Shown here piece by piece: positions 3,330 through 40,303 of a stretch of DNA of 64,000 bases. Source of the stretch: Blasia pusilla (taxonomy: Eukaryota); contig CM114271.1 of the NCBI GenBank assembly GCA_050084515.1, positions 2,294,001 to 2,358,000 of the forward strand. The letters are read 5' to 3'. Numbering within the stretch: the stretch's first letter is position 1; each line of letters begins with the position of its first letter. The notes under the pieces are model-generated. The model was not told the DNA's origin. It worked only from the letters and a program-made list of their open reading frames with translations, and did no database searches. The position numbers and the translations under genes are program-made.

Positions 3330-3843
3330 TGTCACGTCTTTTAGGATAGATCGGTGAGATCTAATAGAACGCCTTCATGAGTAGTGGAGGACACGCCTAG
3401 TAGGTCAAGGGTGACCTGTTGAGGCCCTTGGAAACCTGAGATAGCAGGTTTCCCCTTCGTTTCGGCTCATTTGGAGCCATATTGAGGAACTTACTATTTT
3501 AGGTAAGTACCATTTTGAGTATATGATCGACTTACTATTTTTGGTAAGTGGCCCTTGACTTCCTACATCAGGTCAAGAGCCAAGGAGGTGACTTGGGAGC
3601 ATAGGTTACCATGGAGAGAGCTTGGGAGAAGGGAGGGGTATACCTCAAGGAGAGAGAGCTTGAGAGCTCATTCTCTCTTTGTTGAACCTCTTGGCATGAG
3701 GCGGCGGAGCTATGGTACCTTGCCTTGTGAGTGTAACCCAAGCCTCTCATTAGGAGAGTGGGTTTGGGTTGACATGAGAGAGAGTCCACACCTTTGAGAG
3801 CTATGGTGTGAGATGGTGGAGAGAGAGATTGGATCTTACTTTA
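3330..3843 (+). repeat. E1 repeat A1 (514 bp)
   Basis: Direct repeat of 11155-11668, about 15 substitutions by eye. TATA-like GTATAC at about 3638-3643. Confidence 0.95.
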
Positions 3844-3858
3844 CAAAGAGAGAATGAG
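3843..3858 (+). promoter_or_regulatory. E1 putative self-priming site at the PBS position
   Basis: ACAAAGAGAGAATGAG is the exact reverse complement of 3667-3682 (CTCATTCTCTCTTTGT) inside repeat A. No TGG-starting tRNA PBS is present. Confidence 0.7.
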
Positions 3859-5435
3859 AGAATGAGAGAGTGAGAGAGCTTCATGGGGGAGCTCGCTCGT
3901 CACTCGCTTTTTTTGCAGGTTGGGGACCGTGTTCCCCGTTCAGCGGCTCATGGGAGTGCTCACCGGAGCAAGGGCTGGTTTCATTATTCTTTGCATTTGC
4001 CGATTTTTCGTGTGGAAGAGTGGCGCGCGGAAGCGCTGCCCAATTTCTGATAGGGATTGAGTATGGGGACAGGTTGCCCCATGCTGGTGCTCTCGAGAGC
4101 ACCATGTAGCTTGCTGATTTGTATTTTTACAGATGTTACATTTTGTTGGGAGAAATCAGCGGAGCGCTGCGAATTTTTTGTGTAGGAGAAAGAGACATTG
4201 GGCTTTACGACAGTCCCGTCAGTTTTACTGAAATTTTTGATTCTAAATATTTTTGATGCTGGCAAGATCGTGAAATTTGTGCACGTTGTGCAAGAAAAAT
4301 AGTGCACAATTTGGAGTTGTCCATTGAGCAAAAAGTTATGGTCAATCTTGTAAAGCTGCCATTGCTAGGCGATTTTTAGGTTAAATCGTGCAAATCCTAA
4401 ATTCGCCACACTCCCAAATCGTCGCCATCATAGTCACCGTCAACGGTCGACGGTCAACCGTCACCGTCATCAGTCGGCCGTCACCATCAGCGGTCAACCG
4501 TCATTGTCAACGGTCAACCGTCCATTGTCCTCCCTTTGGGTGCCATTGCCGCCATTACGGAGTGGAGGGTCTTCCACGGCGTTCGTTGATTCCTTGACTT
4601 GCGTTGCCACCACGTACTTTGTTTTGGCCGCCACCGTCATCGCATTTCTTCATCAACCAATGAAGGAGATGACCTCCGGTTATGGTGTTTGAGTTTTGAT
4701 TTCATGCTGCTATGTTGTGATTGGTAGCCGCTCGGCGGACGATCGAGTATCGTGCCGTGACGCCGTGAGCCGTAAGCCGCAACGCCGCGCCGATTGCCCA
4801 CCGCCCGTGCCGCTCGTGGCCGCACCGCACCGTCTCAATCGCGGAGCCGCACCGTCATTGTGGAGCAGAGTGTGGGATTATTATTGATTGAGGAGGGTAT
4901 GCCGCCGAGTGCCGCATCCCACCATCGAGGGCCGTGCCGTTCGTAGCCGTTCCGTGCCGCCTGCAACGCCGCACCGTTCCGCTGGGACCGCATTATCTAT
5001 CGAGGAGTTTTGAGCAGCATCAGTATGGGAGGAGTATGACTTGCTGATTGGAGGAGTTGTCTCCACGATCGAGTTGGGGTCGAGATTCGCAGTTGTTGAG
5101 GAGCGACATCGACATGTGTTCAGGTTACCCATTCTGGTCCTTTACCCTGCACGTGTGAGGGATTCTGGGATTTATTTGGGGATATTGGGTGTGTGGATGC
5201 TGAGAGCATCATTTATATATGTGGTTTAGGGGACATAGACCTGTGTGGGATGTCCGGAGTGAAGGGTAGGTTGTCGATGAGATGATAGCCTGGTCGATTT
5301 GCCGCACCACGCCGCGTGTTGCCGCACGTTACACGTCTCGGGGAGAGAGAGTGTAGATCGAGTGCCGCATGTTTGGGATGAGTGATTGAGGGATTCCTCA
5401 CGAGGTTCAGAGTGATCAGGTGAGAGGGGCACGAG

Positions 5436-6153
5436 GGTCATCACGGAGTCCGTTCGGGACTTTGAGAGGCGAGGTGGTGAACCCGAGAGTAGCTCTAGAG
5501 GTTTTACGCGGAGTGGCGCGAGGTTCCGAGGGTCTCCACGTGAGGGACCACCTCGACCTCCTTCTGTGTCATCGTCAGACGAGGGGGAGGTTGTAGAGGA
5601 GTTTGTGAGCACATCGCCACACGTTGTGAGTGGTCCTACCAGTTGGGCATACGAGATGGACGACCGGGGTAGAGGACATCGTAGGTTTACAGGTGCAGTA
5701 GGCACGATTGAGTTGCACGATTTTATAGCAGAGTTTAGGAGTTGGTGCGACTCCCAACGTGCCAGGAACTCTAGAGAGTTCAACCCATTTACAGCATGGA
5801 ACGGTATGTTCCAACATTTAGAGGGGGCGCCCATGGACGATTACCATGAGTTCTCTCGGAGAAATGCATGTGAGATCGAGGCGTGGAGGCTCTACTATGA
5901 CCCACATTATGTGTCATGGACGGAGCCGTTCCCAGATGAGGAGGAGGAGTCAGGAGAGGCTACTGCCTCTTCTACTAGTGACGTTTTAGGAGGAGTCACT
6001 CGCACGGGAGCAATTGCACCGTCTAGTCGGGTTCGTCCCAGGTTCAACCCTGTGGTTGAGTTCTTTGCTGAGTTGAGGGCGAGCTACCAGGGGGTACGGA
6101 CGGAGAAGTTGTGGAGCATCCACGACTTCCAGAGGCGCCCGGGTGAGAGTGCC
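5436..6153 (+). pseudogene. E1 gag-like region, C-terminally deleted
   Basis: RRFTGAVGTIELHDFIAEFRSWCD...LEGAPMDDYHEF aligns with the E2 gag fragments RRYSGAVGTIELEDFM and LEGPPMDDYHEF. Assigned as gag from its position upstream of pol. Confidence 0.7.
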
Positions 6154-6439
6154 ATCACTTGGCCTAGTGATTTGATTGAGGGACATGTCCATGCAGAGGA
6201 TACTCCCGTTCCTGACATTTCTATGGAGAGGAGTGTTATGGTAGCTGCATCATTCCGTGGAGGAGAGGTGTGTGGGGCTCGGACCGAGGAGCTTCAACGA
6301 TTCCCCGATGAGCACGCAGGCACCATGGCATGGAGCGCGGCGTTTGCACAGGCGTGATGGGTCTGAGGAACCCGAGGTAGCAGGGAGTGCTACGATGACA
6401 CCCTTGGATACCACACCCATTGTGTGGTGTACCCTGGAG

Positions 6440-7360
6440 GAGGGTATTCGAGTGTTAGATCTCTTTGGAGGGATTAGCACCGGGTTAGGTGCTGTTTTGC
6501 AGGCATGAGTGAAGAAATCTGGCCAGCACTGTATGTGGAGAGTGATGATGTTGCAGGGCGCGTCTCACTACGACATGTGGCGCAATTACGCCCACGTTTT
6601 CCCGACTTATTATGCGTCCGCGTCTGAGGATACCGAGTTCCCTACCGAGGATATTTTTTGTTGGGGCGCAGGACTTAGAGCGGTAGGGACCATTGATTTG
6701 GTCATTTCCGGTTGGCCATGTTAGGGCCAATCGAGTCGGACGAGGCAAAGCGGCGGGTTGGCGACACTCGGTCCAGGTTGTTTTGGGAGATGTTGAGGGT
6801 CTTACGGCAGTTGCAAGAGCACCAGTCTCGTTCTCTAGCCTTCATTCTCGAGAATGTGCCGATCTTAGGAGACTCCAAGTCACGGGTCGTGACGAGTGCT
6901 CATCAGGTGCGTGCCTGGATCGGCCCAGCAGTGTTCTTGGATGCGGCGAGGGTAGGTTCTAGAGCCCATCGCCCGCGTCTATGGTGGACAAACTTGGTGC
7001 CCCATGCGTTGTTATGGAGGGCGTATGCGAGAGTGGAGCGCCCCTCCCCTTTGTTAGTGGATTCCATTCTGGATCCAGGTCGTCGATCACAGGCAGTGAG
7101 GCACGATGATCGACCACCGCTGATTGTGGTCAACAGGGTAGGCAGGTCGCGGGCAGCCTTGCCCACGTTTGTGAGTTTTCCCGCTTCCTATGCATACAAG
7201 GAGGCCGGTCCTGGCTTGGTTTGGGATGACCAGGTTCAGCGGTTGGTGGAGCCCAACGCCGACGAGAGAGAGCGAGCGATGGGATTTCCCACAGGAGTGA
7301 CGGCAGTACCATCAGTGTAAGAGGCATCACGACGCCATGTCTTGGGTCAGGCGATGGACT
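6440..7360 (+). pseudogene. E1 DNMT3-like C5 cytosine DNA methyltransferase domain (frameshifted)
   Basis: Motif I VLDLFGGISTG, motif IV DLVISGWPC (next codon TAG where E2 has Gln), motif VI FILENV, motif VIII AHRPRLWWTN, motifs IX/X ERERAMGFP...VLGQAMD. Confidence 0.9.
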
Positions 7361-7849
7361 GGCGCTTGACATGGATCCTCGGCTTGGGAGTGGTGAGCAA
7401 CGCGTCATATGAGATCGCGACATATCACAACGGTTGCGTTGGTGAGCCCCATGCCTACCGAGACGGTGGAGGCAGTGGCTGGGGGCGAGACCCGAGGAGA
7501 TCTACGCACCAGGGGAGATCGGGAGAGACACCCTTGGACTTCTTGGGATGTTTTGAAGGTACGCAAGGAGATGATAGCCACAGCATCGAGCGTGGTTTCG
7601 GGCACTGCACGTGGAGGAGATCAGAGTTTGCAGTTGGCTGCAGGAGAGCGGCCGAGTGTTGTTGTTCAAGAGGGGTTGCACCATAGCAACCACCGATACC
7701 GCGCCGGAGAGTCCCTCGTAGTCACGATGGAGACTTGGGAGCCGATATGGGCCCTAAGTTGACAGGGGAGGAGAGCGGCGCCGAATACATCGTTCCTCGA
7801 AGTTATAGGAGCGCTGCGTTTAGCATGGAGGATTTGGGTACGTTGAAGG

Positions 7850-9160
7850 GACCGGGGATCCGCATTGAGTTGTCGAGTGATATGCCGATCTTCCGACGAC
7901 CCTACAGGTCTGATGATATGGAGAGGGCTCTGATTCAGAGTAGGAGCCAGGACTTGGTCGGAGCAGGACTAGTGGAGATGTCGCATGGGGAGTATGCATC
8001 TGCCACTATCATGCCCGCCAAGAAGGATGTGCATGGCAACTGGACGGATAGGCGGATGTGTGGGGATTACCGACCTATCAATCGGCAAACGAAGTCCGAT
8101 AGGTATGCCATGCCCACCCCTGAGGAGATCTTTGATGCGATTGGTAACGCAAAGGTCTTGATTCATTGATTTCGAGCCGGATACCATCACCGCCTATCGA
8201 TTGGAGGACAGGCAGAAGACGGCATTTTGGGGCATCGATCCTCACGGGAAGGATTGTTTGTACCAGTGGTGGTTCTTACCATTTGGGTTAAAGAACGCCA
8301 CGGCTGAGTTTCAGAGGGTCATGGATAGGATCTTGGCTGGTCTGGATTTTGCTAGGTGTTATATTGATGACATTGTAGTCTTTAGCGCCACGGTTGAGGA
8401 GCATGAGCAACATCTAGAGGAGGTGTTTTGACGATTGCAATTACATGGGCTGAAGCTACATCCAGGCAAGTGCAAGTTCTTCTATGACCAGATTGAGTAC
8501 TTGGGTCATACGATATACCCAAGGGGGCCTTGGTGTTCAGAGCGAAGGAAGAGGCTATCTCACGCATTCCACGCCCTACAGATGTGAGCCGTGTTCGCGC
8601 ATTCATGGGATTGGCGAACTTCTATCGGCGATACGTCAAGGGATTCAGTTCGATTGCGAAGCCGCTGACCTTGCTGACCAAGGTGGATCACGAGTGGCAC
8701 TGGGGGAATGAGCAGGAGCGAGCATTTCGATTGCTCAGGGGATAGGTTGGCGTCCGCACCCATCTTGAGGAGACCGATCAGGGGGCGTCCTTTCCAGTTG
8801 CACACATATAGGAGCATGTTGGGGCTTGGAGCGGTGCTCACCCACCATGATGATGAGGGTAGAGAGTTCGTGGTGGCTTCCGCTAGCCGCTCGAACAACG
8901 CTGCAGAGGCGAAGTACAACTTGTATGAGGGTGAGTGCTTGGCTGCGGTGTGGGTTGTCGCGCATTTCAGGTGTTACTTATTCGGAAACCCCTTTACCAT
9001 CATCACTGATCATCAACCACTGAAGTGGTTGATGGAGTCCGACAAGCTTACAGGGAAGCTTGCGAGATGGGCTCTGTTGTTGCAGGAGTATGATTTTCAG
9101 GTGGTACATAGACCTGGGACGCTCAACCAGGATGCAGATGGGTTGAGTCGTAACCCATGC
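7850..9160 (+). pseudogene. E1 reverse transcriptase and RNase H (Ty3/Gypsy type, frameshifted)
   Basis: RMCGDYRPIN, KTAFW, LPFGLKNA, CYIDDIVV, FMGLANFYRRYV; RNaseH GLGAVL, YEGECLA, IITDHQPLKWL, LARWALLLQEYDF, NQDADGLSR. Confidence 0.95.
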
Positions 9161-9529
9161 CTGAGTCAGCGAGATGCGACTGGAGCTCGATGGCATGGAG
9201 AGAGTGATGAGTAGTCGGTGCCAGGATAGCACGCGTCAGCCTATTTAGGCATGTTGGCTATGGAGAGCCAGAGTGTGGAGACTTCGATGGCGAGGTCTAG
9301 TGGAGAGTCCTTGGATCCCGAGGCCAGTGAGGACACGACAAGTGGCCGACATATTCATGATGATGGAGTATTCTTAGAGTACCTTCGTACTGGCAGCCTT
9401 GCAAGCACCATGGATACTAGAGAGCGGGATCGGATCCTACAGCGGGCCAGACGGTTCCGTTGGGAGGGGACACATATTTTGAGGGTTTGGGAGGATGGCA
9501 GAGTACGCTTAGTGCCGCATCCTTCACAG

Positions 9530-10600
9530 AGAGCACGACTAGTGCAGCATGCCCACAAGGAGTTGGGTCACTTTGGGGTGAAGCGGACGTATAGCTTGCT
9601 CCACATTCAGTATTGGTGGCGAGGCATGCAGAATGACGTTCAGCAATTTGTTGCCAGGTGCATGGTGTGTGATCGGGTCCGAGCATCGTTCAATGCTCCG
9701 ACTCCACAGTTGCATCCATTACCGATCATGGGCTTAGGGTATAGATGGATTTTGGATTTTGCAGGACCTTTGCCCTTGACGGAGCGTCACAGTCGTTATG
9801 TGTTGGTGATGGTCGAGCACTTCTCAAAGTGGATCGAGTTGGTTGCATTGCGACAAAGCGAGTGAGGGAGTAGCTTATGCCTTCCTTGACAGAGTCTTTG
9901 AGTCATTATGGCGCACCGGCGGAGTGTGTTGAGACCAGGGTACCGAAGTTTCGCGGTGAGTTCCAGGCCTTGTGTGATCGGGGGGCGATTCGACCACCGC
10001 CACGACGCGAGATCATCCTGAGGCGGATGGATTAGCGGAGATAGTTGTGCAGACGGTGAAGAGGGTTTACGCAAGTATGGCTTGCGAGAGAGGTCACCTA
10101 GGAGATTGGGACTTCAGTTGCCATGGTTGGCGATGGGATCTGATTCAGCGAGCACGCATCCTTAGCGTCTTTTTCACCGTATTTGCTACTTTATGGCGAG
10201 CCGATTTACTGCGGCCATTCGTCGAGATCTTTGGTGAGGTTTGAACCTTGATGACCAGATGTATGGGTGCGAGCATGTTCTCGAGGGCTGAGTTATTTCG
10301 AGAGTGATGCCCATGGCGTTCGAGAACTTGGCGATTGCACAAAGATCGGATACGTTGAGATATGCGACTATTCGTGGTGGTGGTTATCGACCAACTATCC
10401 GGAGGTTTCATCAAGGAGATTATGTCTACTTGCGCAGACGGCACCAACGGCGTTGGATGTGATCGCAGGCGCACTATCCGAGAGTGCGTGACATTTTGCC
10501 ATCGGGTGTTCTCTTCTTGTTGGAGGGACGCGATGGTATGGTATGGAAGGACCATGTGCGTAATTGTGCGCCATGTCACCTTCCTAACATTGATGGTACT
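9530..10600 (+). pseudogene. E1 DDE integrase (frameshifted)
   Basis: HHCC zinc finger (HAHKELGHFG...CMVCDR), core WILDFAGPLP and YVLVMVEHFSKW. The downstream core is broken by indels but is collinear with the E2 integrase. Confidence 0.9.
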
Positions 10601-10641
10601 GAAGAGATCCGAGCTTAGCGATAGTTCATGCGGGCTTGCGT

Positions 10642-10782
10642 TGTATGTTGTGTAGTTACGCCGTGTAGTGCGCCACGATGCTAGTCTATGATGGGTGTTC
10701 GAGAGGATGGCATATGGCATGTTTGACGCCACCTCTCACTAGGGTTCCTCAGGGACAATGGATGTGTCCCAGATGTACATAG
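10642..10782 (+). pseudogene. E1 PHD finger at the integrase C-terminus
   Basis: CMLC...MLVYDGCSRGWHMACLTPPLTRVPQGQWMCPRCT-stop; C4HC3 pattern with one Cys mutated to Tyr. Confidence 0.88.
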
Positions 10783-10993
10783 AGAAGGTAGTTCTACATT
10801 CCGACTTGTATCTGTGACATGGATGACAAGGAGGCGACTAACGATGGGGCCACATGAGCATCCGGTTTTCTTGCTCTTAGCGTCGAATCGAAAAAAAAGA
10901 AAGCAAATAATTCTATTATTATTAATAGAATTTTCTGCTTTCTTTTTTTACGATGTATGTCATGGTAGGTAGGGATAGATGGCTATCTGGAGT

Positions 10994-11024
10994 TAGAGGG
11001 ACCTAACCACCAGCTAGGGGGGCG
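10994..11024 (+). promoter_or_regulatory. E1 conserved polypurine-tract-like element immediately before B1
   Basis: TAGAGGGACCTAACCACCAGCTAGGGGGGCG, 29/31 identical to the E2 motif at 28477-28507 (-). Confidence 0.65.
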
Positions 11025-11796
11025 ATTGGAGATATTTTGGTACTTCTTGTCTCGTTGTTTGGATGCCATGAGTTAGCATGGGATCATGCGTGTTTGTGTG
11101 TGTGTTCGGTGACAGCGATGTATGTTGTGTAGCGATGTGTATGCGCACGACAGCTGTCACGTCTTTTAGGATAGATCGGTGAGATCTAATAGAGCACCTT
11201 CATGAGTAGTGGAGGACACGCCCAGTAGGTCGAGGGTGACCTGCTGAGGCCCTTAGAAACCTGAGATAGCAGGTTTCCCCTTCGTTACGGCTCATTTGGA
11301 GCCATATTGAGGAACTTACTATTTTAGGTAAGTACCATTTTGAGTATATGATCGACTTACTATTTTTGGTAAGTGGCCCTTGACCTCCTACATCAGGTGA
11401 AGAGCCAAGGAGGTGACTTGGGAGAATAGGTTACCATGAAGAGAGCTTGGGAGAAGGGAGGGGTATACCTCAAGGAGAGAGAGCTTGAGAGCTCATTCTC
11501 TCTTTGTTGAACCTCTTGGCATGAGGAGGCGGAGCTATGGTACCTTGCCTTGTGAGTGTAACCCAAGCCTCTCATTAGGAGAGTGGGTTTGGTTTGACAT
11601 GAGAGAGAGTGCACACCTTTGAGAGCTATGGTGTGAGATGGAGGAGAGAGAGATTGGATCTTACTTTAATTGGAGATATTTTGGTACTTCTTGTCTCATT
11701 GTTTGGATGCCATGAGTTAGCATGGGATCATGCGTGTTTGTGTGTGTGTTCGGTGACAGCGATGTATGTTGTGTAGCAATGTGTATGCGCACGACA
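11025..11796 (+). repeat. E1 right-end repeat block B1-GC-A2-B2
   Basis: B1 11025-11152 and B2 11669-11796 are both 128 bp with 2 differences seen. Junction CACGACA-GC-TGTCACG at 11146-11161. A2 is 11155-11668. Confidence 0.95.
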
Positions 11797-14115: not shown

Positions 14116-14555
14116 AACCAAACCTACTCTCCTAATGAGAGGCTTGGATTACTCACAAGGTAAGGAGGACCATAAATCCACTGCCTCATACCAAAAGGTT
14201 CAACAAAGAGAGAATGAACTCCAAAGCTCTTTCTCCTTGGGTATACTCCCTTCTCTCTCCTAAGCTTTTTCCATGGTAACCTATGTTTGCATGTCACCTC
14301 CTTAGCTCTTGACCTATGGTAGGAGTCAAGAGAAAACTCCTAGAGTGAAAAGTCAAGTATGCTTATATTGACAATTTACTTGAAATAGTAAGTTTCTATA
14401 TATAGCTATAAATGAGCCCAAAAAAATGGAAAATCTGCTCTCTCTCAAGTTACCCGAGACCGTAATAAGTCATCCTCGACCTCCTCAGGCTATCTTCCAA
14501 TATCCTAGAAGGCACTATACGATAAACTCGTCAATCTATCCTAAAAGATGTGACA
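13945..14555 (-). mobile_element. Degenerate solo A+B unit related to E1
   Basis: Reverse-complement similarity to E1 B then A (e.g. actctcctaatgagaggcttgg, ggttcaacaaagagagaatga, ctatcctaaaagatgtgaca). Flanks are TAGT and TAGC (3/4 TSD). Confidence 0.85.
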
Positions 14556-15811: not shown

Positions 15812-16426
15812 TGTCACATCTGAGTAGTCGATAGGCCGAGATCTATCGTGGATAGGGCGTAGGAGCCAGCGGACTATCTTGAGTGCAACTTTGTCTCACG
15901 GTGTCGGATGAGGTTGAGGATAGGTCCATTGTGTCAGGAATGTCGTTCCGCTAACTTTCATGTTGAGGTCTTTCACAATCGGATGACTTGTTGACCAGGT
16001 CACCCTCCCATGGTAACTTGTGCGCGCAGGTTACCAAGGGGAGGGTTATTTTTAGGGGAAGAGCCTTTTGGCTCTTCCCAACCCTATATAAGAGAGGAAG
16101 GTGGCTTTCCTAAGCCATCTTTCTCATGTTGGGCTGTTGGAGCACCTCTCTTGTATGTGTGTGAGATAGGACTTAGGTGCTAGCGTCCGGATTCTTTGAT
16201 AGATAGTGGACGAGGGCGCGCGCTCCTATGCGCGCCTCCCACCGTCCGCATGTCGCCGCCCGCCGCCTGCCCATCCACGACCGTCGCCGTTATGTGATCT
16301 CCATGTATATGTATGAGTTGATTTTTGTACATGTGTGGATCAACGTGTGTGTGAGGAAGATCGGTGTTGTGTGGTGTAGATGTGACCAGCAATGTATGTG
16401 GTGTAGCGATATGTATGCGCACGACA
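15812..16426 (+). mobile_element. Solo A+B unit of a third related family
   Basis: Starts TGTCACATC and ends GTGTAGCGATATGTATGCGCACGACA, nearly identical to the E1 B end. Perfect 4-bp TSD TCTT (15808-15811, 16427-16430). TATATAA at 16085-16091. Confidence 0.88.
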
Positions 16427-27895: not shown

Positions 27896-28476
27896 TGTCG
27901 TGCGAATCCACATCGTCATACAACATACATTGCTGACATACCATACTCACATACATACATAACATAGACGAGAGCATCCACAAACACAAGTGTACCACAA
28001 CTGAAATCCGTGAAAGACCCACTGCCATAAAACACGTATAGAATCACATACAATCGAGCCAAACCCACTCCACGATGGGAGAATCTAGGTCGAAGCTTGG
28101 AAACACCATAGCCAAGAGCTCTACTCACTACCAAGGCTAACTCCCAAGCAATGAGGCTCAACTCAAAGAACTCGATTTGTTCTTTGAGTGCACTCCACCT
28201 ATATCCTCCAACCTAAGAGCGGGCCCTCTTTGGAAAAGTCACCTCAACCGAGTAACCTCCAACCCTATGTATGAAATCGCATCTCTACCTAGACACTGCG
28301 GCCCTACATAAGGTATGGCCTCTACTAGCACACTATACTCTACGACATAATCCGTATGGTCATGACAGCTGTCGTGCGAATCCACATCGTCATATAACAT
28401 ACATCGCTGACATACCATACTCACATACATACATAACATAGACGAGAGCATCCACAAACACAAGTGTACCACAACT
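27896..28476 (-). repeat. E2 terminal repeat block B1-GC-A2-B2
   Basis: 27896-28002 repeats at 28370-28476 (107 bp). 28003-28367 repeats at 37297-37660. Junction GACA-GC-TGTC at 28364-28373. Confidence 0.95.
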
Positions 28477-28648
28477 CGCCCCCCTAACTGGCGGTTAGGT
28501 CCCTCTAGCTTCCAGGTATCCCTATACATCTACTACATGCTATACACCTTCTTGGGTGCACGAATCAAAAGGCCGGGTGCTAGGTTGCCCCATCGTTAGT
28601 CGCACATCTATAATCCATATCATGCAAAGATCAAGTCATCTACCCCTC

Positions 28649-28789
28649 CTAAGTACATCGAGGACAAACCCACCTTCCAGTAGGAACAACATCCATACAT
28701 GGAGTCAAACACATCATGTGCCAACCCCTAGAACACCGATCACACACCAACATACGGGTTGCGTTACCAGCAGACCCACACAACATGCA
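28649..28789 (-). pseudogene. E2 PHD finger
   Basis: CMLCGSAGNATRMLVCDRCSRGWHMMCLTPCMDVVPTGRWVCPRCT-stop; intact C4HC3. Confidence 0.92.
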
Positions 28790-28829
28790 CCTCAAGCTAG
28801 CACGTATCATGGCTAAGCTTGGGTCAACA

Positions 28830-29900
28830 GTACCATCCACATTTGGAAGATGGCGCACAATTACGCACATGGTCCTTCCAAACAACTCCATCACGACCCT
28901 CCAACATGAGAACTCCAGAAGCTAACACCTCGCGCACTCGTAAAATAGTGCGCCCTGCTGTCACATCCAACGTTTTCGGTGCAATCTGCTGCAAAAAGAC
29001 ATATTCCCCCACATGGAACCTACGAATCGATGGTCGATAACCTCCACCCCGAATAGTTGCATACCACAACGTATCCCTGTGTTGAGCAATGGCAAGATTC
29101 TCAAAGGCTGTTGGCATAACTCTCCGAAAGAGCTCTGCCCGCTGAGAACACACTCTCATCCACATCTCTGGGTCATCAAGGTTCACCACCTCACTAGACC
29201 CCCGACGAATTGCTGTTGGCAAGTATGGATCTCGACCGTATAACAGAAAATAAGATGAGAAGGAAGCCAAGGATGCTTGGCGACTGAACCTATACCCCAT
29301 GGCTAACCATGGCAACTGAATATCCCAGTCTCCAAGATGCCCCTTTTGTAGGCCATACTTACGCAATGCCCTCTTCACCGTCTGAACCACACGCTCAGCC
29401 AAACCATCCGCCTCTGGATGATCTCAAGACGTGGTCCGATGATCAATCAACGCCTTGTCACACAAGACCTGAAACTCACCCTAAAACTATGTACCCTGGT
29501 CGGTCAGTACTTCAACCGATGCACCAAAATGACTAGCACTCTATCAAGAAACGCATACGCCGTTCCCTCACTTGCCTTGTCCGGTAATGCCACCAACTCA
29601 ATCCACTTGGAGAAGTGCTCCACCATCACCAACACATATCGATGATATCGTACAGTCAACGGTAACGGTCCCGCAAAGTCCACACTCCAACGGTAATCCA
29701 ACCCCATAATAGGCAAGGGGTGTAATTGTGGTGTAGGGGCATTGAATGATGCCCTCACCCGGTCACAAACCATACAACATGACACCAACTGCTGCACCTG
29801 AGTATGCATGCAACGCCACCAATGCTGACCAAGGAGTAAGCTATATGTACGCTTTACCCCAAAATGTCTCAACTCCTCATGGGCATGTCGCACAATGCGC
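28830..29900 (-). pseudogene. E2 DDE integrase
   Basis: HAHEELRHFG...CMVCDR, WSVDFAGPLP, YVLVMVEHFSKWIELVAL, TDQG, AERVVQTVKRAL, YFLLYGRDP. Confidence 0.92.
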
Positions 29901-30289
29901 TCTCTCTGAGCCAAATGCGGCACTACTCGTACTCTACCATCCTCCCACACACGGAGAATATGTGTTCCCTCCAATCGATACCTCTTAGCACGTTGAAGAA
30001 CACGGTCTCGCTCCTTGGCACTCACTATGCCTGGCACCCTACTGGTCCGTAGGAACTCCAACACCAACGCATCATCATGAATATCACGCTGATCCGTACC
30101 ACAATCTCCAACCTTAGGATCCGAAGGCTAGCCATCTACCCTCTGACTAGAGTAAGATATCATGTGGTCCTCCATACTAGAGTCCATCCCTAACCAACAT
30201 AAAAAGGCGAATGCATGCCAACCTGGCACCATCTCCTCATCATCCTCGCCATGCCATCTAGCCCAAGTTGTATCCTCTTGGCTAGTACA

Positions 30290-31520
30290 TGGGTTCCTAC
30301 TCAACCCATCAGCATCAAGGTTGGCAACTCCAGGTCTATGTACCACCTAGAAGTCATACTCCTGTAAGATAAGCGGCTGGTGATCAGTAACAAGGGTAAA
30401 CTGTGTGCCAAACAAGTAACACCTAAAGTGTGCCACAGCCCACACTACTGCCAAGCACTCTCCCTCATATGAACTATAGCGACTCCGCTGCATTATTCGA
30501 ACGACTTGCATAGGCCACCACAAACTCCATGTGCTCATCATCATGTTGTGTCAACACCGCTCCAAGTCCCAACCTACTCCAATCAGTGTGTAACTGAAAT
30601 GGGCGCCCTTTGATAGGTCTCCTCAAGATAGGCGCCGCCACCGACTGGGCCTTAAGCTCTACAAAAGCTCTCTCCTGATCATCTCCCCAATGCCACTCTT
30701 GATCTGATTTCAGCAATTGGTTCAAAGGCTTTGCTATAGCACTAAATCCCTTCACATACCTCCGATAGTAGTTCGCCAATCCCATGAATGCCCGAACTTT
30801 ACTCACATCTACCGGACGCGAAATAAGTGCAATAGCCTTCACCTTTGCTTGCTGAACTCCCAAACCACCTGGATAGATCACATGACCCAAGTACTCAACA
30901 TCCTCATGGAAGAACTTACACTTTCTAGGATGCAAACGTAGACCATGAGCTTTCAACCGCTCAAACACCATGTGCAAATGTATCTGATGCTCCTCCACCG
31001 TGTTACTGAACACCAAGATATCATCAATGTAACACCGAACAAAATCCAACCCTGCTAGGATCCTGTCCATCACTCTCTGAAACTCGGCATGTGCATTCTT
31101 CAATCCAAAGGGTAAGAATTTCCACTGGTACAAACAATCCTTGCCATGAGAGTTGACACCCCAAAATGCTATCTTGGCCTTGTCACTCTCCCGAATCGGC
31201 AATTGATGGTATCCTGCCCGAAGATCCAAAGTACTGAAAATATTTGCCTGTCCCACTACATCAAAGATCTCTTCAGGTGTAGGCATGGCATACCTATCGA
31301 CCTTGGTTTGCCAATTGATAGGACGATAATCTCCACACATCCGCCTATCCGTGTAGTTGCCATGCATATCCTTTTTAGCAGCATGCATGGGGTGGCGATG
31401 CATACTTTCCATGCGACAACTCCACTAATCCAGCCTCCAAAAGGTCCAACGTCCTACTCTGAATCAGGTCCCTCTCCATATCACTATATCGGTAGGGACG
31501 ACGGAAGATTGGCGTATCAC
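30290..31520 (-). pseudogene. E2 reverse transcriptase and RNase H
   Basis: ORF 30474-31412: RMCGDYRPIN, FSTLDLRAGYHQL, LPFGLKNA, CYIDDILV, LHTDWSRLGLGAVL; then YEGECLAVVWAV, TDHQPL, DADGLSR. Confidence 0.95.
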
Positions 31521-31974
31521 TAGCCAAATCAATCCGTATACCGGGTCCAACCAGAGAACCCAACTCCTTCATGCTAAAGGCAAAACAACTCCTATAAGCA
31601 CGTAGGAACTGTGTCAAGCGTCGTTTCTCACCTCCCGTAAGCTTGGGCCTAATTAATGGCTCCCAAGTCTCCTCCACTGGCACTTTGCCATTGGCTGCTA
31701 CGCAACCCCCTCACAAGATGGTACACCCTTAGCTACACCATCAGCTGAGCAAATAACTCCTCCACCAGCATGAGCAACCAACTCCACATGCCCAGCCATT
31801 ACATCCCATTTACTCCAAGGATGCAAAATACTACTCTCCTCGCCCCCAACCGATGCCTCTATCGTCCCGGTAGCCATCGAGCTTATTACAAGGGGTGGAA
31901 GACCCACAGACATAGTCCGAAGTCGACGCTGCTCGGCCATACCAAGACTCAAAATCCAAGTCAAACAATTCAGG

Positions 31975-32890
31975 TCCATGGCCTGACCCAACACATGACG
32001 TCGTGAAGCCTCGAAATGGAAGCAACATTTGTCACACCGAGAGCAAATCCCATCGACGCTCGCTCATCAGCGTTAGGCTCACCAACTGTCGCACATGAGA
32101 ATCCCATACAAGCCCGTGACCACCTTCCCTGTATGCATGTGACGAGGGAAAACTCACAAATGTGGGTAGTGCCATCCTAGGCTGGCCCACACGATTCACC
32201 ACTGCCATGGGTGACCGATCAATAACCCTCACTACCTGAGAAAGTCGCCCAGTATCCAAGATACTATCCACTGTAAGGCAAGGATCCCGCTGCACTGCAT
32301 CATATGATCGACGTAGAACCTCCCTAGGCAACAAGTTTGTCCACCACAAGAGTGGACGATGTGCACGCGAGCCAACTCGGGCTGCATCCAACAACACCGT
32401 TGGTCCAATCCAAGACCGCACCTCATGAACACTCGCCATCATCCGGGTCCGAGTGTCATCCAACAATGGAACATTCTCCAAAATGTAAGCTAGAGCACGT
32501 GCCTGATGAACCTGAAGATGTCGTAACACCCGTAACATCTCCCAAAACAATCGAGACCGAGGGTCGTGTAATCCCTCACCACGACCAACACGTGTATGAC
32601 CCTGACATGGCCATCCAGCAATCACCAAATCCACAGGACCAACCCTCTCAAGGTCCTGCGCCCCCAAGAATGCAATGTGTGATGGCAAAGCACGATGGTA
32701 CCCACGAATAGCTGATGGCGGCAACAACTCAAGATATCTCAGCATCAACTGACCAATATGTCGGGATGAGACTCTGTGGGCCGTCTCATCTTGCTCCACA
32801 TACACGTATCTCCAAGACAGAATACCGGCTTGCAACATCGACCAAACCAGGTGCTAATCCCACCAAAGAGATCTAACACACAGATGCCCT
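31975..32890 (-). pseudogene. E2 DNMT3-like C5 cytosine DNA methyltransferase domain
   Basis: VLDLFGGIST (I), YVYVEQD (II), DLVIAGWPCQG (IV, catalytic PC), YILENV (VI), LLDAARVGSRAHRPLLWWTNLLP (VIII), VLGQAMD (X). Most of it lies in the 268-aa ORF 32032-32838. Confidence 0.92.
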
Positions 32891-33179
32891 CGGCGGATCG
32901 CCATACAATGGGTGTAGTATCCAAAGGGGATAACCTAATGGACAGAAGTAGGAGTCCGTGGGGCCTCCTCTTCCTCGTGAGGTATAATGACCTCACACCA
33001 AGCCTCCTACACTAGGCGTCGCCTCTGCCGTAGTGCACCGCTTGAACTCCAAAGTGGCACATCCAACGATGAGGATGCCACTGCTGCAAAAATAGGGACC
33101 TCCTCTACCTCCTCATGCACAGGAGAATCCATAGCAAAAACATTACCCTCCAAAAATCTCCTGGCCAAGTGACTACTCC

Positions 33180-33737
33180 ACTAAAACCAACCACAGATGC
33201 TAACACTGTTGGGGAAGACCCTCCTGGTCGAGCCCCATAAATAAATCTCACAGGAACTTGGCTCATACGTCCATCCCCGGACTGCCAACCAGGTCTATAA
33301 GACGCTGTCTCACCCAAGTAATCCATCATCGAAAACCCATCGGGTACAAATCTCGCTCCTCCAACTAGTACATCATACGACTCGGCTGATGTGACTACCG
33401 CAGATACTCCCAACCGGGAGCTATCAATCGCATGATCTGGTCTCAATTGTACAGAAAACTTCTCCCGTTTCATGAATTGAGACCTATCATTGGCTCCTCC
33501 AAGTGATGTTTGAATCTGGAATGGGCAACGCTCGAGCTCTGACCTCCGAATACCCAAACCACTACATGCCGCCTTTCCCAACATCAAAGGTTGGGCAGCA
33601 GAGTCTAACAAGACTCTATCTGGTCTATACACCTGTCCTGTAGGACTCACCAATCGGAATATCCCACTCCGATTGTCCAACATACATACACCAGGTGTAA
33701 GCCTCTCACGATCAATGGTGGCCGGGTGGTAATGCAT
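33180..33737 (-). pseudogene. E2 aspartic protease-like domain
   Basis: RVLLDSAAQPLML (DSG-like active site) and YDVLVGG (C-terminal ILG-like motif), located between gag and the MTase. Confidence 0.75.
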
Positions 33738-34249
33738 CCATCTTCGCCGCCGCCGCTAAGTAGCATTGGTACTCAATGCTACACCTGACATAGAGGGTCG
33801 CTCCACCGCAACACCCTCATCCACCTCAGCACGTGTAGCATTAACACCCCCACGTTCACACAACTTGGTTGCTAGCTGAAATACATGAGCTAAGTCAACT
33901 CCTAAAGCCATCAGCTCCGTGGCCGAAAACAATGGGGATCCCAACACTGAAGTTGCCATCCGCAATACTGCACTAGATGTTGCATCCGTGTCTACTACAC
34001 GCGATGTAGATGCCCCAGTCCCCACTATCCGCTCAATAGGCTGCGTAGAAACCATGGATGGTGTCCTAAGCACCTCAGACAACAAGAATGACTGGGGAAG
34101 CCTATCCTGCCTCCTGCCCCCCCCCCCCCTTCTGTGGGTCCAACTCCACAGTAGCACCATGTGGCTCTGATGCTCGAGTGGCTCCTCTCAGAATCGCTGG
34201 TGATGCCTCAACTCAGGTATCTTTGCACTCGCCATATAAGAGAGATCAT

Positions 34250-35764
34250 CTCCTCCATAAGAGGTGGAAGCCCCTGCTCCCGAACCGATCTATCTTTGGA
34301 TACCCGACCATAGTAGCCAACTTCTGCTCCAACGGCTCAATCTCGGCGACCATAATCGACTCGTCGTAGTGGTAGGGGTGGCCACCGTAGGCTCTCCAAC
34401 CACTGGTCCACCTCTACCACCCCTACCACCTCTACCACCTCGGCCTCTCGGAGCTACTCCACCACGGCCGCGGCGTGATCTCAACTCGGATGAAGATCAA
34501 AGCAACGCTCTCGAGGATGGTCTGGTCTCCCGCAATGATCACACACTGAGTTGGGGCCGATCGAGGCCCATCCTCCAAAGTCCGTCTCCCATCCTCTTGG
34601 GGACAAAACTTCCTTACATGATCACCTCCACATGTCCAACATGATCCGCCCAGCAGCGGCAAAGCAAATGAAGGCAATGGTCTCTCGCAAGTGTCCCTCT
34701 AGGACTGGACCGAGGTCGAAGTGTACCCCCACGACTCCCACTACTACTACTACCACCACCACTACTACGAGACGTGAGGGACCGCCGCACACGAAGTAGT
34801 AGTTGTATCCCCATGAATGCCGATGTCACCACTCTCTCCTTCACCATGTTAAGCTCAATCTTCTCGTAAAGAGCAAACACATGGTCAATGTGGGTGAATC
34901 ATCACTCATAAGAGTAGCATCACGCACCTGCAGGCGCAACTCTCATCCAACATCCCATACCAAAACGGATGCTCGAGCCTGAGTCACACCTTGGGTAATG
35001 AAATCAAGCGCCGTGATACGAGTGTATGCCTCACGAAGACTCTCACCAGTCTTTCGCTCAAATTCTTGAAGACTTCTCAACTTCTCTGTCTTCACTCCTG
35101 ATAGTTCTTCTTCAACCTCTTGAAGAACTGCAGAATCGGGCTAACGATGGTGGGGCACTAGTACCTCCACTAGTACCCCCATTGGTACCTCCATGGGTAC
35201 CTCCATGGGTACCCCCACCCCACTCGGCTCGCACTCGTACCACTCAACGTCGGGATTTGGATGGCATAGTAGGAGCACTACTACCAATACCACCATGGGT
35301 GATAGACACATAGCCGGAGACCAATATTGTCTCCACGCCTCAATCTCGACAACATGGTCCTTCCTAAACTCATGGTAATCATCCATGGGTGGTCCCTCAA
35401 GTCTTTGAAACAACCCCTTCCAGGCCAAGAAGGGTGTAAACAACGTGGCGTTCCGCAACATCTGCATATCACACCACGTATCAAACTCCTACATGAAGTC
35501 CTCCAACTCAATGGTGCCCACTGCACCCGAGTATCGTCGTGGGCCCTTCATGGTCCCATATATCCCGTCCATGTCCCAAATCAATGGAGCTCCAACACTC
35601 GATAACAACGTAGAAGACTCGGTGTTTGGAGCACCCTCGTCCTCCTCTTCATCAACCGTCGGAAGTGGAAAAGGTAGCCGATACCTAAATCTGCTCCGTG
35701 TGAAACCACCACTGTCCGCACCACGGTCCCCAACCAGACCACCCGACAGCTCTGTGATGACCAA
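34250..35764 (-). pseudogene. E2 gag-like region with zinc knuckle
   Basis: Fragments homologous to E1 gag, a CWTCGGDHVRKFC knuckle at about 34600-34645 and an RGG-rich tract at about 34400-34480. Confidence 0.7.
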
Positions 35765-37284
35765 CGCCGATGCCGCACCACCACCAAATTATCACCACTA
35801 AGTAACCAAGTGACATCGATGTCGCTATACTATTCTAGCTCTACTAGCTATGGGTGTAGGCAACCTAACCTGTCATCACTACAAGAAGCATCCCACGGTC
35901 TATTGGTCATCACTCTAGCCTCACTACCGGTAGCACACAAGAGTAACACTGCTCTGGAAATCAGCTTCAACCCTAACAATGGGCGCGCAAGCAAGAAGCA
36001 ACGATGGAGGGGATCCAAACACAGGAAGTCCAACGACAACCCTCCAATCGCAAATGGAAATCAAGGTAACACAATCCACCAAACGTGGCGCCCCTTGAAT
36101 CCACAGAACCCACCACACAATTCTAACGCAATAGCTACTCCGCCGCGGGTCGATGACGTGCTAGTCCAACTTGCAGCACCTGAAAATATCACCTGCATGG
36201 AGAGGCTACACCATACTATGCGCTAGAGGTCCATCAACCAAAAACCTGAGATGCATAAAGCGCCTAACACCTCTCCGACCAACACCAAATGAGCTACAAC
36301 AGTGTGTACACTGGCATAGTTAAGAACTCAGCAATTAAGCGTCTTCCAAGCAGAATAGCCCAAAGATGGGTGACCAGTTATGCAACACTCAAATCACAAA
36401 TCCTGCAAAAAATGCCTCACGCCCAAGCAAGAAAGCTTGCTTGCTTGCTCATTGCTCCTTACTCCGCCTCTCACGCCCACTCACCCCGAGCTACCACGAG
36501 TTGCCTCAAAGCCTCAAAACGCCGAGAAATGCTCAAGACATGCCCCGTTCGCCACGCTTCGCCATGCTTCACCATGCTTCGCTATGGAGAGAGGCCCAAC
36601 CAGGGCGCCCCCAATGGGATAGGCGTCTCCAAAATGAACGAGTCACCACCCAACCAGCCCCTCCGATCCGTTGTCCACCATAGCCAGACCTTGAGCTAGT
36701 CTGCAAAATTTTGATCAGCAATTACTCCACAAATCCTCAACCAAAATTGAATCTGTTTCAACCAGAATTCAATTGACCACCATAACTATCTCTCCACAAA
36801 AAATCAGCTACAACCAAACTGTGTACTCTGAGCTAAAAATCAGACAAACTTGTTGTCCATATACCTCCAGAATCGCAAATCCAACAGCGCTTCCGCCCAG
36901 TTTCATGCACGCAGAAATCCGCAACGGTCCACACACTCGAGAAGATAGCTTCACATGAGATCAAAATACAAGTAGCAACAGGAACCTCTCACCCAATCTG
37001 GATGAAGTTCAACAGAGCTTCCGCACTCCAAGCTCTCCACATCAGAAAATCGTCGAACACGAACCAGAATCTTCAATCCTTGATAACTTCCAACTCCCTT
37101 GACGAAATCCGGGATCTAAAGCGTGTTGGAAAGATCTCAGCAAGGCGCTTCTTTCCCAACCAACCACGCACCAGATTCACACCTCCAACATAGGCCACAA
37201 GCCACGAACATCCATGGATGAGTACACAATCAGCCCTAACAAGATCCTACTGATCCACAATCAAAGCTACCATCGATCTACGTC

Positions 37285-37296
37285 AGTTCTTTGAGT
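37285..37296 (-). promoter_or_regulatory. E2 putative self-priming site at the PBS position
   Basis: Element-sense ACTCAAAGAACT directly after A1 is complementary to AGTTCTTTGAGT in repeat A (28161-28172 in A2, 12/12; 37456-37465 in A1, 10 bp). Confidence 0.65.
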
Positions 37297-37660
37297 GAAA
37301 TCCGTGAAAGACCTACTGTCATAAAACACGTATAGAATCACATACAATCGAGCCAAACCCACTCCACGATGGGAGAATCTAGGTGAAGCTTATGGAAACA
37401 CCATAGCCAAGAGCTCTACTCACTACCAAGGCTAACTCCCAACGCAACAGGCTCAACTCAAAGAATTGACTGTTCTTTGAGTGCACTCCACCTTATATCC
37501 TCCAACCTAAGAGCGGGCCCTCCTGGAAAAGTCACCCTCACTGAGTAACCCCCAACCCTATGTATGAAATCGCATCTCTACCTAGACACTGCGGCCCTAC
37601 ATAAGGTATGGCCTCTACTAGCACACTATACTCTACGACATAATCCGTATGGTCATGACA
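37297..37660 (-). repeat. E2 repeat A1 (364 bp)
   Basis: Direct repeat of 28003-28367 with small indels. Element-sense TATAA at about 37492-37496. Confidence 0.93.
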
Positions 37661-40303
37661 TAAATGACTAGCTTAAGTCATTGTTCATGGTAAATAACTG
37701 AGAATAACTCATGACCATTAGAGTCCTATAAATCAAGTCATTTATAGAAAATGACTAAGGTTACCCAATCGGTAAACGACTCTAGTCATTGATATATGTA
37801 TAATGTATCATGTGTGAAAGCCATGTCACGATGCCACCTTCACATATGACATGGCATGAAGATGATATTATAGTCACCAATGAATACCACCTGTATGAAA
37901 TGACTCAATCATAACTACACTTCCCATCTTATTACATGACATGGCATCTAAGTAGGATTTGAATATCAAATCACATGCGACCATTTGGCACCACGCGGGA
38001 AAGGATAGTGTCATGAAACAATCCAATGACATGTGTCAATAGATCGTCTCTAACGCTTGTAAAACATGGTAGAGATGACTCTATCATAAAGAATGATTGC
38101 ATGAGTTTTATTCAATAACTCATCAAATCATTAGATATGACTATATGAGTCATTTACTGGCTATGTAAGTCATTAAAAATTATTATAAGTAACTTGGTGT
38201 GACGAGGTGAGTCACTTTGAATGACTAGAGACATTGATTGTATTAGTCATGTATACGACTATATTAGTCATTTCTTAGCACTGCGTTCGACATTGTTGTG
38301 ATTGTATTAGTTAAATCAATGATTAGATCAGTCATATTATTAATGAATCGATACTGTTTTGACTTTACTAGTCATTTGCAGATGTTATTGGACTACATTA
38401 GTCATTGTAATCATTGAATGAGCCAAACATAAGGGAGTTGATGGATGTTCTTGTCTCAATATGATGAGATCCATGCAAGAGTTAAAAACATCAAGGTAAT
38501 TCTGACAGCATAAACAAGTCCCAATAGTGAAGATGAACTTCAATATAATCAGATCATTTTGTTCTTGATTACTAGAATAGTGAGGAATCATTGTAGATAA
38601 GGGTCACAATCTCTTCAATAGGGGAAATAGCAAAAAAGAATGAATGAAAAAAATGGACATAAGGTAAAAGAATGGCATGATATCATCATTGTGCCATCTC
38701 TAAATTCTCTGAAAGTTACTTAGAGCTCCTAATGAACAAACCTTTTTAGATTTAACTATGGCCAAATGATAAAAGTCCCTATTGCATCTCCAAGTGTGAG
38801 TTGAGTAGGTTCATTCATTGTGTTCGGATCCCATAGTTGGTGATCATGTTGCATTGTATTCTTTAGGTCCACCTTGACCAAACCGAGACCAATATCCTTC
38901 TCATGGACGGAAGACTACGGAGCCTATGCAAAAAGTAATCTTTGTTATAAGAAGTTAAAAAGAGATGAACTAGATGCCATCCAACTTGTTTTTACTCTTG
39001 GATACCAATTTAATAGATTAGGAGAGAGAAGTGAGTGAGTGAGGAGAGGGTTTAGGGTTTAGAGCAATATACTAGTGCAGCAATATGAGTAAAAGGGATG
39101 GCAATACGGCTACTTGAAGCCATGCCATGGCAATTGGTGTAACTAAGGTTTAATCAAGAGGATGAAGGTTTGGATCAAGAGGATTAACCTAAGGAGGTAT
39201 CTCATTCCCGACCTTTATGAAAAGGCGCAATTTCCCTAAAAATGCTTTTGTCCTCACTCTTACTACATAAGCCATTAAGTTTGAAATAAAGAAGTAAAGT
39301 TTCTTGGAAATCATATTTGTTTGGGAAAGTTTGAGTAATCATTGAAATTACAAGAAAACAAAAACCAATTGTCCACAATATAAGAACTCAATAGCAAAAA
39401 TTCTTTGGATAGAGAAGAGGAATAAACTTGGGAAAGAAAAGAGTCGAACCTTTTTTTAAGCACCATAGATCTCAACAACTATGAGGAAAACTCTAATTCC
39501 TTCACGAATTACCATCACTACTAAGAATCGAGCATTAATAGTAGATACTCTTTCACAAAGCTTTTGTCGGGCACGAAAGGAAGTCATTACACATAAACGC
39601 ATTATTTCTTAAAAGTATGTACATAACAAATAATTTTTGAAAATGAAGAAGATGTTATGTCATCATTATAACAACATAAAAAAACTATTAGAATCAAGTG
39701 AATTCAATTTATTAGATATACAAACCTAAGAAAAAAGAGGGGAAATAAAACAACATCATCCTAAGAAAGGAAAAACAAGAAACGAATTTTTTTTTAAATA
39801 TTTAAACAAACAAACTCAAAAAATTAGTCAATAATTTGAAACAAGTGGGACGAAGACTAGTGAGTGGTGGCGAGTGACGCTAAGCAATTAGGCTGGACAA
39901 ATCAACGCTAATACACGTTGTAATTACGATTGAGAGCAAGCAAAGTGGTGATTCGGGAGCCTTCACGTACTCCACTCTTTGAAGTGATTCAAAGAGTCGA
40001 GTGCGAGAAGGCGCTTATCTTTGAACCGGGAACACATGCTGATCCACAGAAGAATGAATAGCTAACAGGTTTGATGTCGAAGAATTGGCAGGTTAGAGTA
40101 CGTGATTGTGTGAGTCAGAGTTTCATTTCGAGGTTAGCATATGTGTTTGTATGAATAATAGTTCATTTTGAATCTTGCGGCGATTTCTTGACGTCTTCCG
40201 CTTCCTTCTTCGTGCGCAGAGAGCAAAGAATTGCGTGTGAAGGAATGCGTGCATCGACTGTGCGTTGGGCGTGGATGATTTCTGGCGCATCAGCACACAA
40301 GGG

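Follow-up and report, generated by a model that had tools for sequence, protein, structure and literature searches.

Two decayed Ty3/gypsy-type insertions in Blasia pusilla, probable members of a retroelement lineage with a DNMT3-type cytosine methyltransferase

Retroelements carrying a DNMT3-type cytosine methyltransferase domain in their polyprotein have been described in an alga and in dinoflagellates (de Mendoza et al. 2018, PMC5890265). As given in the accessible part of that paper, KnitGypsy-Dnmt3 of Klebsormidium nitens combines Gypsy domains with a repeat structure that is 'the same' as that of the DIRS element, and its methyltransferase domain has a Ka/Ks below 0.2, while SymbioDIRS-Dnmt3 of dinoflagellates has repeats in the order 'A-coding region-B-A-B'. 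Here we analyzed a stretch of 64,000 nucleotides of Blasia pusilla (GenBank assembly GCA_050084515.1, contig CM114271.1, positions 2,294,001 to 2,358,000 of the forward strand), hereafter the window, which contains two diverged retroelement copies, E1 and E2. An earlier note, made from the letters of the stretch, had pointed to the motifs of a cytosine methyltransferase in E2. Our results make it highly probable that E1 and E2 are dead insertions of a Ty3/gypsy-type lineage carrying a DNMT3-type C5 methyltransferase, of the kind of KnitGypsy-Dnmt3, and we regard this lineage as a new member of that known Gypsy-DNMT3 kind.

In the later literature, as far as the texts were accessible, streptophyte Gypsy-DNMT3 elements are mentioned only through de Mendoza et al. 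2018, both in PMC12344493 and in a preprint (10.64898/2026.05.21.726589), the summary wording being 'streptophytes (Gypsy-DNMT3)'. The words Marchantia, liverwort and moss are absent from the accessible text of de Mendoza et al. 2018 (PMC5890265), whose supplements may hold rows from these plants, and no description of bryophyte or chlorophyte Gypsy-DNMT3 copies was found in the accessible parts of the literature searched, where again supplements may hold such rows. For Marchantia, the accessible text of PMC5784723 lists five host DNA methyltransferases, none of them transposon-borne.

The methyltransferase domain and its class

All five C5 methyltransferase motifs reported in the earlier note were located on the minus strand in canonical order within 32891-31929. 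The EGICVLDLFGGIST motif occupies 32891-32850, the motifs DLVIAGWPCQG, YILENV and DAARVGSRAHRPLLWWTNL all fall inside 32841-32080, and LGQAMD lies inside 32012-31929. The domain is flanked by a protease-like open reading frame (ORF, 33755-33105) and by an ORF matching RVT_1 (31424-30474), so that its placement between protease and reverse transcriptase (RT) of the Ty3/gypsy-type element E2 also held. A Pfam search returned PF00145 on the minus strand at 32032-32853 with an E value of 7.3e-9 and 35.9 bits, above the curated cut-off of 22, and, of 2041 candidates compared with the E2 piece as a query, 35 proteins reached E <= 0.001, the best one with E 3e-117. Since a PF00145 match and 35 related proteins were obtained, the motifs cannot be ascribed to chance. 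The same domain is present in the second copy of the window, E1, at 6440-7392 on the plus strand, and an intact relative from a metagenome, locus L034, scored 51.1 bits with PF00145.

By piecewise tblastn the E2 domain was found to be split into four pieces that occupy three frames, the frame shifting near 32845, 32080 and 32012. Its motif VIII carries L at the second R of RxR, a position occupied by R in 10 of 10 aligned relatives; across the ten-sequence family alignment the catalytic cysteine, the E-N of ENV and the second R of RxR are invariant. The E1 domain is likewise broken by frame changes and stops, one of them directly after the catalytic cysteine codon and another at 7318-7320.

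The class of the enzyme was assessed with a profile of ten aligned methyltransferase domains of the family, searched against all solved structures. DNMT3A ranked first (E 1.7e-23), followed by DNMT3C (3.2e-21), DNMT3B (1.5e-20), tobacco DRM (1e-12), Arabidopsis DRM2 (1.1e-9), M.HhaI (1.8e-7) and DNMT2 (1.6e-4); no chain named DNMT1 or chromomethylase occurred among the 57 matches at E <= 1. An AlphaFold model of the Marchantia domain was obtained with a pLDDT of 79.7 and a pTM of 0.82, and the Foldseek matches listed for it to rank 50 were all DNMT3A, DNMT3B or DNMT3C, the best with E 1.9e-15, TM scores of 0.63/0.74 and about 20% identity. The sequence profile and the predicted fold thus support the DNMT3-like nature of the retroelement-borne enzyme, as the earlier note had proposed, this affinity being drawn from a ranking against solved structures. 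Among the matches listed in the homology and cluster-representative searches, the domain occurred in retroelement copies only. Pfam detected neither PWWP nor ADD, the readers of animal-type DNMT3, beside the domain in P0001, P0003, P0021, P0250 and the first ORF of L034. Since some DNMT3s have no identifiable companion domains, according to the accessible text of PMC12344493, this does not exclude membership in the DNMT3 group.

These rankings also bear on the possibility that the domain methylates RNA, either the genomic RNA of the element or the primer tRNA, in a DNMT2-like manner and not DNA. Such a role was raised for a DNMT carried by a LINE, an enzyme that did not methylate DNA in yeast (de Mendoza et al. 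2018, PMC5890265, as far as accessible), and proteins linked to Gag would meet the genomic RNA in the particle. However, the E values of DNMT2 and tRNA methyltransferases lay about 19 orders of magnitude above that of DNMT3A (1.6e-4 vs 1.7e-23), and the fold matches listed to rank 50 all belonged to DNMT3. We therefore consider an RNA substrate very improbable.

E1 and E2 share 68-71% DNA identity and thus represent two sublineages, not recent copies of each other. Their comparison over 159 clean in-frame codons of the methyltransferase gave a pN/pS of 0.30 (bootstrap 0.23-0.39; pN 0.212, pS 0.711), a rough ratio in that pS is near saturation, and because of this closeness to saturation the true value is probably lower. 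The corresponding ratios were 0.25-0.36 for RT, 0.22 for the integrase and 0.41 for gag. All were calculated from clean in-frame stretches, as dN/dS on tblastn pieces crossed the frame breaks of E1 and returned saturated or undefined dS. The codon comparison shows that purifying selection kept the methyltransferase domain while the E1 and E2 lineages diverged; neutral evolution between the two copies, which the earlier note had named as an outcome that would speak against its proposal, was not observed. The idea of a passenger domain, derived from a fragment of a host DNMT3 that was picked up by chance and does nothing for the element, might appeal to the broken state of both window copies. 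It is contradicted by a pN/pS as low as those of RT and integrase, by the invariant cysteine, ENV and RxR positions, and by the occurrence of the domain in hundreds of diverged cluster representatives from green algae and bryophytes, and is close to refuted.

Position relative to Gag, host range and transcription

In E1 the ORFs at 7321-7686, holding the end of the methyltransferase, and 7687-8169, holding RT, lie in one frame and are separated by TAG CAA CCA. E2 has TAG CAG CCA at 31700-31698, followed by a private frame break. We examined 80 metagenome loci of the family, in 74 of which the match reached the end of the domain; a stop was found in 68 of these. At 23 of the 68 the first stop stood 79-116 codons past the domain and was followed by CAR YYN, the context being CAA CCC in most bryophyte-type loci. 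As these copies are related the 23 loci are not independent events, with six sequence variants occurring among them. The intact locus L034 displays the arrangement in full, with 1369 codons comprising protease and methyltransferase, a stop in the context TAG CAG TTA (stop at L034 5083-5085), and 1047 codons for RT, RNase H, integrase and PHD finger in the same frame. The Marchantia sequence P0003 (18 member sequences) ends at the matching place. A -1 frameshift between methyltransferase and RT was ruled out, as the frames on both sides are identical in E1 and L034 with one stop between them, the offset in E2 being the private break.

Judging from these reading frames, the methyltransferase is encoded together with Gag and protease and lies before a conserved in-frame stop. 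The earlier note had taken the enzyme for a part of Pol; its location between protease and RT stands, its assignment to Pol does not. If the stop is leaky, the methyltransferase would therefore be found in an abundant Gag-protease-methyltransferase product and not in the rarer extension with RT, integrase and PHD finger.

The profile search of cluster representatives returned 513 at E <= 1e-30 and 2479 at E <= 1e-10. The named hosts comprised the liverworts Marchantia polymorpha (many copies), M. paleacea, Riccia sorocarpa and Calypogeia fissa, the mosses Sphagnum troendelagicum and S. fallax, and the algae Closterium NIES-53/54 (a zygnematophyte), Haematococcus lacustris and Scenedesmus PABB004; no row named Klebsormidium occurred among the homology matches listed. 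Two family members, P0251 and P0274, are filed under bacterial bins (Minisyncoccia, Obscuribacterales) and have eukaryotic retroelement domains; most likely, DNA of a plant or alga was binned wrongly in both cases.

A quick maximum-likelihood tree of 44 hand-picked domain rows (22 named, 20 unnamed and the two from the window) separated a chlorophyte-type from a streptophyte-type clade with 99% SH-aLRT support each. E1 and E2 fell inside a clade of 26 rows (98%), the named ones all being from liverworts or Sphagnum, with E2 in a 17-row subclade (95%). The element order differs between the two main clades, being gag-protease-methyltransferase-RT-RNase H-integrase, in some cases followed by the PHD finger, in the streptophyte type (Closterium P0250, Marchantia, L034, E1/E2) and RT-RNase H-methyltransferase-integrase-PHD in the chlorophyte type (Scenedesmus P0072, P0243, P0030). 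These sequence relationships suggest that the family is old within the green lineage and did not arise as a novelty of land plants. The suggestion in the earlier note that a land-plant host would extend the known distribution is borne out for Marchantia, Riccia, Calypogeia and Sphagnum, with the qualification that the range also includes Closterium and chlorophytes.

Within the tree, the three Sphagnum rows stand beside a Riccia row (99%), inside a group of Marchantia-type liverwort rows, at odds with the phylogeny of the hosts. This points either to the sorting of ancient sublineages or to a transfer of the element between liverworts and mosses.

Three RNA-seq raw-read runs bearing the species label of the best-matching DNA run were mapped on positions 27500-38000. 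Each run yielded 2123-2321 reads, of which 64-99 were at least 99% alike to E2 and the rest 95-99%. Depth reached 25-56 over the methyltransferase bins (31712-32764) and 40-100 from RT to integrase, and was 0.5-2.7 over 27851-28201. First mates mapped to the plus strand about 10-100 times more often than to the minus strand and, since plus-strand first mates correspond to minus-strand RNA in usual stranded libraries, the RNA is sense to E2. Many sites were unlike E2 in nearly all RNA reads, C>T and G>A being the commonest differences, and the reads parted from E2 at 32012, 31381, 30372/3, 30479 and 28850. In the host species, sense transcription takes place from copies that are 95-99% like E2.

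Some RNA reads (14-40 per run) skipped 1007 bases at 29116-30124, with nine other letters between, and no contig of the DNA run did so. The skip lacks standard intron ends and probably reflects an expressed deletion derivative without part of the integrase.

The state of the copies can also be read in terms of self-limitation, in which the enzyme would mark its own copies for silencing, with less transposition and host damage and a long-term persistence of the element. The idea appears in the accessible Discussion of de Mendoza et al. 2018 (PMC5890265). Most copies are indeed decayed, with an open domain in 6 of 79 metagenome loci, and the two transitions C>T and G>A prevail among the differences. 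However, any methylated plant repeat usually decays and shows a transition bias, for which no element-borne enzyme is required, and sister copies are still transcribed, which leaves self-limitation improbable.

Repeat layout, integration and further features of the window

The limits of E2 were set at 37660-27896 on the minus strand by self-comparison of the window and reading of the ends; the features of both copies are collected in Table 1. An A-internal-B-A-B layout was observed in E1, E2 and five further loci (L045, L064, L062, L059, L073). The elements start with TGTCA and end with CGACA, and the internal B/A junction consists of ACA, two variable bases and TGT. A G-run similar to the tract of E1 and E2 precedes B1 in all five loci that were read. 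A 4-bp target-site duplication (TSD) flanks five of the seven elements, with none at L062 and L073. No tRNA-type primer-binding site starting with TGG was found directly after A1 in E1 or E2.

That integration is of the Gypsy type is directly supported at the sequence level, by the presence of a DDE integrase and of target duplications. The layout would result if a head-to-tail form with two B-A repeats, such as a circle, were opened at the internal B/A junction by the DDE integrase. Two other origins of repeat B were rejected. Tandem elements or a long target duplication do not fit, as B duplicates the last and not the first part of the internal region and as B repeats of 107-185 bases recur in seven elements alongside 4-bp TSDs. 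The A-B joints in a DNA sequencing run were ambiguous, as A1 resembles A2 and B1 resembles B2, and were not used. Membership among DIRS-like elements does not agree with these data, as Integrase_H2C2 and rve were found, not a tyrosine recombinase, together with 4-bp TSDs in five of seven elements.

Among solved structures, the PHD finger that ends the integrase is closest to those of KMT2C, CHD4, DPF2/3, KMT2D and ATXR5, and this finger probably steers insertion by reading a histone tail. Its presence shows that the element engages chromatin, which would favor an action of the methyltransferase on host chromatin, at the insertion site or more widely on host DNA, altering the host treatment of the new copy or of nearby genes. 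An abundant Gag-protease-methyltransferase product could reach the nucleus in quantity, and effects on insertion-site chromatin are raised in the accessible Discussion of de Mendoza et al. 2018 (PMC5890265). On the other hand, nuclear targeting of the methyltransferase part is only presumed and, since the PHD finger is encoded beyond the stop codon, most methyltransferase molecules would be without it. We regard a host-chromatin role as unlikely.

Table 1. Features of E2 and E1 in the window
Feature	Position	Strand	Evidence or remark
E2, 5' target-site duplication TTTA	37661..37664	-	same 4 bases at the other end, 27895-27892
E2, repeat A1, left terminal repeat, begins TGTCATG	37296..37660	-	94.6% identical to 28002-28367
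E2, gag region with CCHC knuckle, several frames	34432..35731	-	ORF pieces resemble the N-terminal part of Marchantia P0003
E2, aspartic protease region	33105..33755	-	ORF compared with Marchantia P0003
E2, DNMT3-type C5 cytosine methyltransferase, pseudogene	31929..32891	-	PF00145 match, piecewise tblastn, profile and fold relatives
E2, stop codon TAG ending the gag-protease-methyltransferase frame, then CAG CCA	31698..31700	-	same position and context in E1
E2, reverse transcriptase and RNase H	30304..31647	-	RVT_1 E 7e-30 (ORF 31424-30474), RT_RNaseH_2 E 7.5e-17
E2, integrase, H2C2 zinc finger and DDE core	28851..30127	-	Integrase_H2C2 E 6e-12; rve E 1e-4, below the Pfam cut-off
E2, PHD finger, integrase C-terminus	28652..28825	-	PF00628 E 8.3e-10
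E2, G-rich polypurine tract directly upstream of B1	28477..28485	-	AGGGGGGCG precedes B1 in E1 and E2
E2, repeat B1, ends CACGACA, then GC, then A2	28370..28476	-	98.1% identical to 27896-28002
E2, repeat A2	28002..28367	-	pairs with A1
E2, repeat B2, right end, ends CACGACA	27896..28002	-	followed by TSD TTTA, 27895-27892
E1, second diverged copy	3330..11796	+	same plan as E2
E1, TSD GCTT	3326-3329 and 11797-11800	+	
E1, repeats A1 and A2	3330-3843 and 11155-11668	+	97.1% identical
E1, repeats B1 and B2	11025-11152 and 11669-11796	+	98.5% identical
E1, TAG CAA CCA	stop 7684-7686	+	RT from 7687 in the same frame
E1, PHD finger	about 10606-10779	+	

The gag knuckle of E2 reads CWTCGGDH (ORF 34432-34698). 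Its protease has the active-site triplet DSA, DSG in the Marchantia relatives; Pfam Asp_protease gave no match in E2 and weak matches in relatives only. The E2 integrase is 85.6% identical over 208 amino acids to Marchantia P0258, the best identity among the proteins compared, none of which reached 90% to E1 or E2.

Elsewhere in the window a third, diverged copy of repeat A lies at 13953-14560 on the minus strand, 72-76% identical to that of E1, and probably represents either a solo repeat or one margin of a further decayed element. A short inverted pair at 16312-16439 and 54289-54416, 79% identical over 131 bases, probably consists of fragments of another repeat family. A tandem-repeat block at 56830-58310, with periods of about 39, 68 and 107 bases, is unrelated to E1 and E2. 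Pfam gave no match for eight ORFs flanking the elements in the window. The ORF at 42674-43243 showed a mannosidase-like N-terminus with scores under 0.9 in an atlas search, which is a lead and not evidence.

Proposed role and comparison with known elements

Several points weigh against the assignment of E1 and E2 to a functional lineage of the KnitGypsy-Dnmt3 kind. Both window copies are dead, and the domain is open in one frame in few metagenome loci (6 of 79). In the chlorophyte-type sequences P0030, P0032 and P0034 motif IV reads GWECQ and not GWPCQ, the cysteine being kept and proline replaced by glutamate; a GWECQ-type motif also occurs in two of the six loci with an open domain. As the sister group has the domain after RNase H, its position in the polyprotein is not fixed. 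We infer the leakiness of the in-frame UAG/UAA with CAR-YYN from conservation and context, and TAA accounts for 8 of the 23 conserved stops against 15 TAG. RNA depth over gag was about 1-9 and, because the reads differ and part from E2, the RNA comes from sister copies and not demonstrably from E2. To these points are added the near-saturated pS and the nature of the DNMT3 affinity as a ranking. Shared descent with KnitGypsy-Dnmt3, finally, is inferred from architecture and repeat layout.

Cytosine methylation is the plants' main means of silencing transposons, and a transposon family with its own de novo methyltransferase is thus a paradox. As a Gag fusion, the methyltransferase would enter the particle and be cut free by the protease. 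It could then methylate the double-stranded cDNA of the element de novo, either ahead of integration or at that step, the new copy arriving already marked. Methylation of its own cDNA is our best guess for the most likely role of the enzyme, a tentative one drawn from the gene arrangement and with somewhat less than even chances. A wider scenario, which we consider rather doubtful, would see one ancient green-lineage retroelement lineage, older than the chlorophyte-streptophyte split and still active in bryophytes, whose circular or two-repeat junction form is opened by the DDE integrase at an internal ACA-NN-TGT site and whose packaged DNMT3-type enzyme, produced in Gag-like amounts ahead of a leaky stop, methylates new DNA before insertion. 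If this were true, a transposon would itself set the mark by which hosts combat transposons, and this in a land plant, Marchantia, that allows genetic tests.

To the described systems our analysis adds the presence of the family in bryophytes, including numerous copies in Marchantia polymorpha, a model liverwort, the transcription of the family in the host of the window, and the encoding of the enzyme with Gag and protease before a conserved in-frame stop. The function can thereby be tested in a land plant amenable to experiment, and caution is called for with the 'DNMT3' genes counted in bryophyte genomes, among which transposon copies may be included.

Chromoviruses are Ty3/gypsy elements with a chromodomain after the integrase and are not known to carry a methyltransferase. 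The elements described here resemble them in the fusion of a histone-reader module to the integrase C-terminus and differ in that the reader is a PHD finger (E 8.3e-10), not a chromodomain, and that a methyltransferase is present. The leaky UAG of the tobamovirus type has a CAR-YYA context, and gammaretroviral gag-pol uses readthrough; in both an in-frame stop splits an abundant upstream product from a rarer replicase extension, as proposed here, and the contexts TAG CAA CCA of E1, TAG CAG CCA of E2 and TAG CAG TTA of L034 resemble the tobamovirus type. However, most bryophyte-type loci have CAA CCC, 8 of 23 use TAA, and the upstream product bears a DNA methyltransferase.

The animal enzymes DNMT3A, DNMT3B and DNMT3C provide the best profile (E 1.7e-23) and fold matches of the domain and share motifs I, IV (PC), VI (ENV), VIII (RxR), IX and X in the same order. 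In contrast to them the family domain, about 20% identical, is without PWWP or ADD in Pfam, has a longer stretch between motifs VIII and IX, and sits in a Gag-protease polyprotein.

As far as described in the accessible part of de Mendoza et al. 2018 (PMC5890265), SymbioDIRS-Dnmt3 has in common with E1 and E2 a DNMT3-type domain in a retroelement polyprotein and A-coding-B-A-B repeats; it has a tyrosine recombinase, whereas Integrase_H2C2, rve and 4-bp TSDs were found here. The closest likeness is to KnitGypsy-Dnmt3, with which, within the same limits of the source, E1 and E2 share the Ty3/gypsy type with its pol set of RT, RNase H and DDE integrase, an unpermuted DNMT3-type domain in the polyprotein, the A-coding-B-A-B repeats, seen here in E1, E2 and five other loci, and purifying selection on the domain (Ka/Ks < 0.2 there, pN/pS 0.30 here). 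The hosts differ, KnitGypsy-Dnmt3 residing in an alga, while E1 and E2 are of the bryophyte type, with liverworts and Sphagnum as their named relatives.

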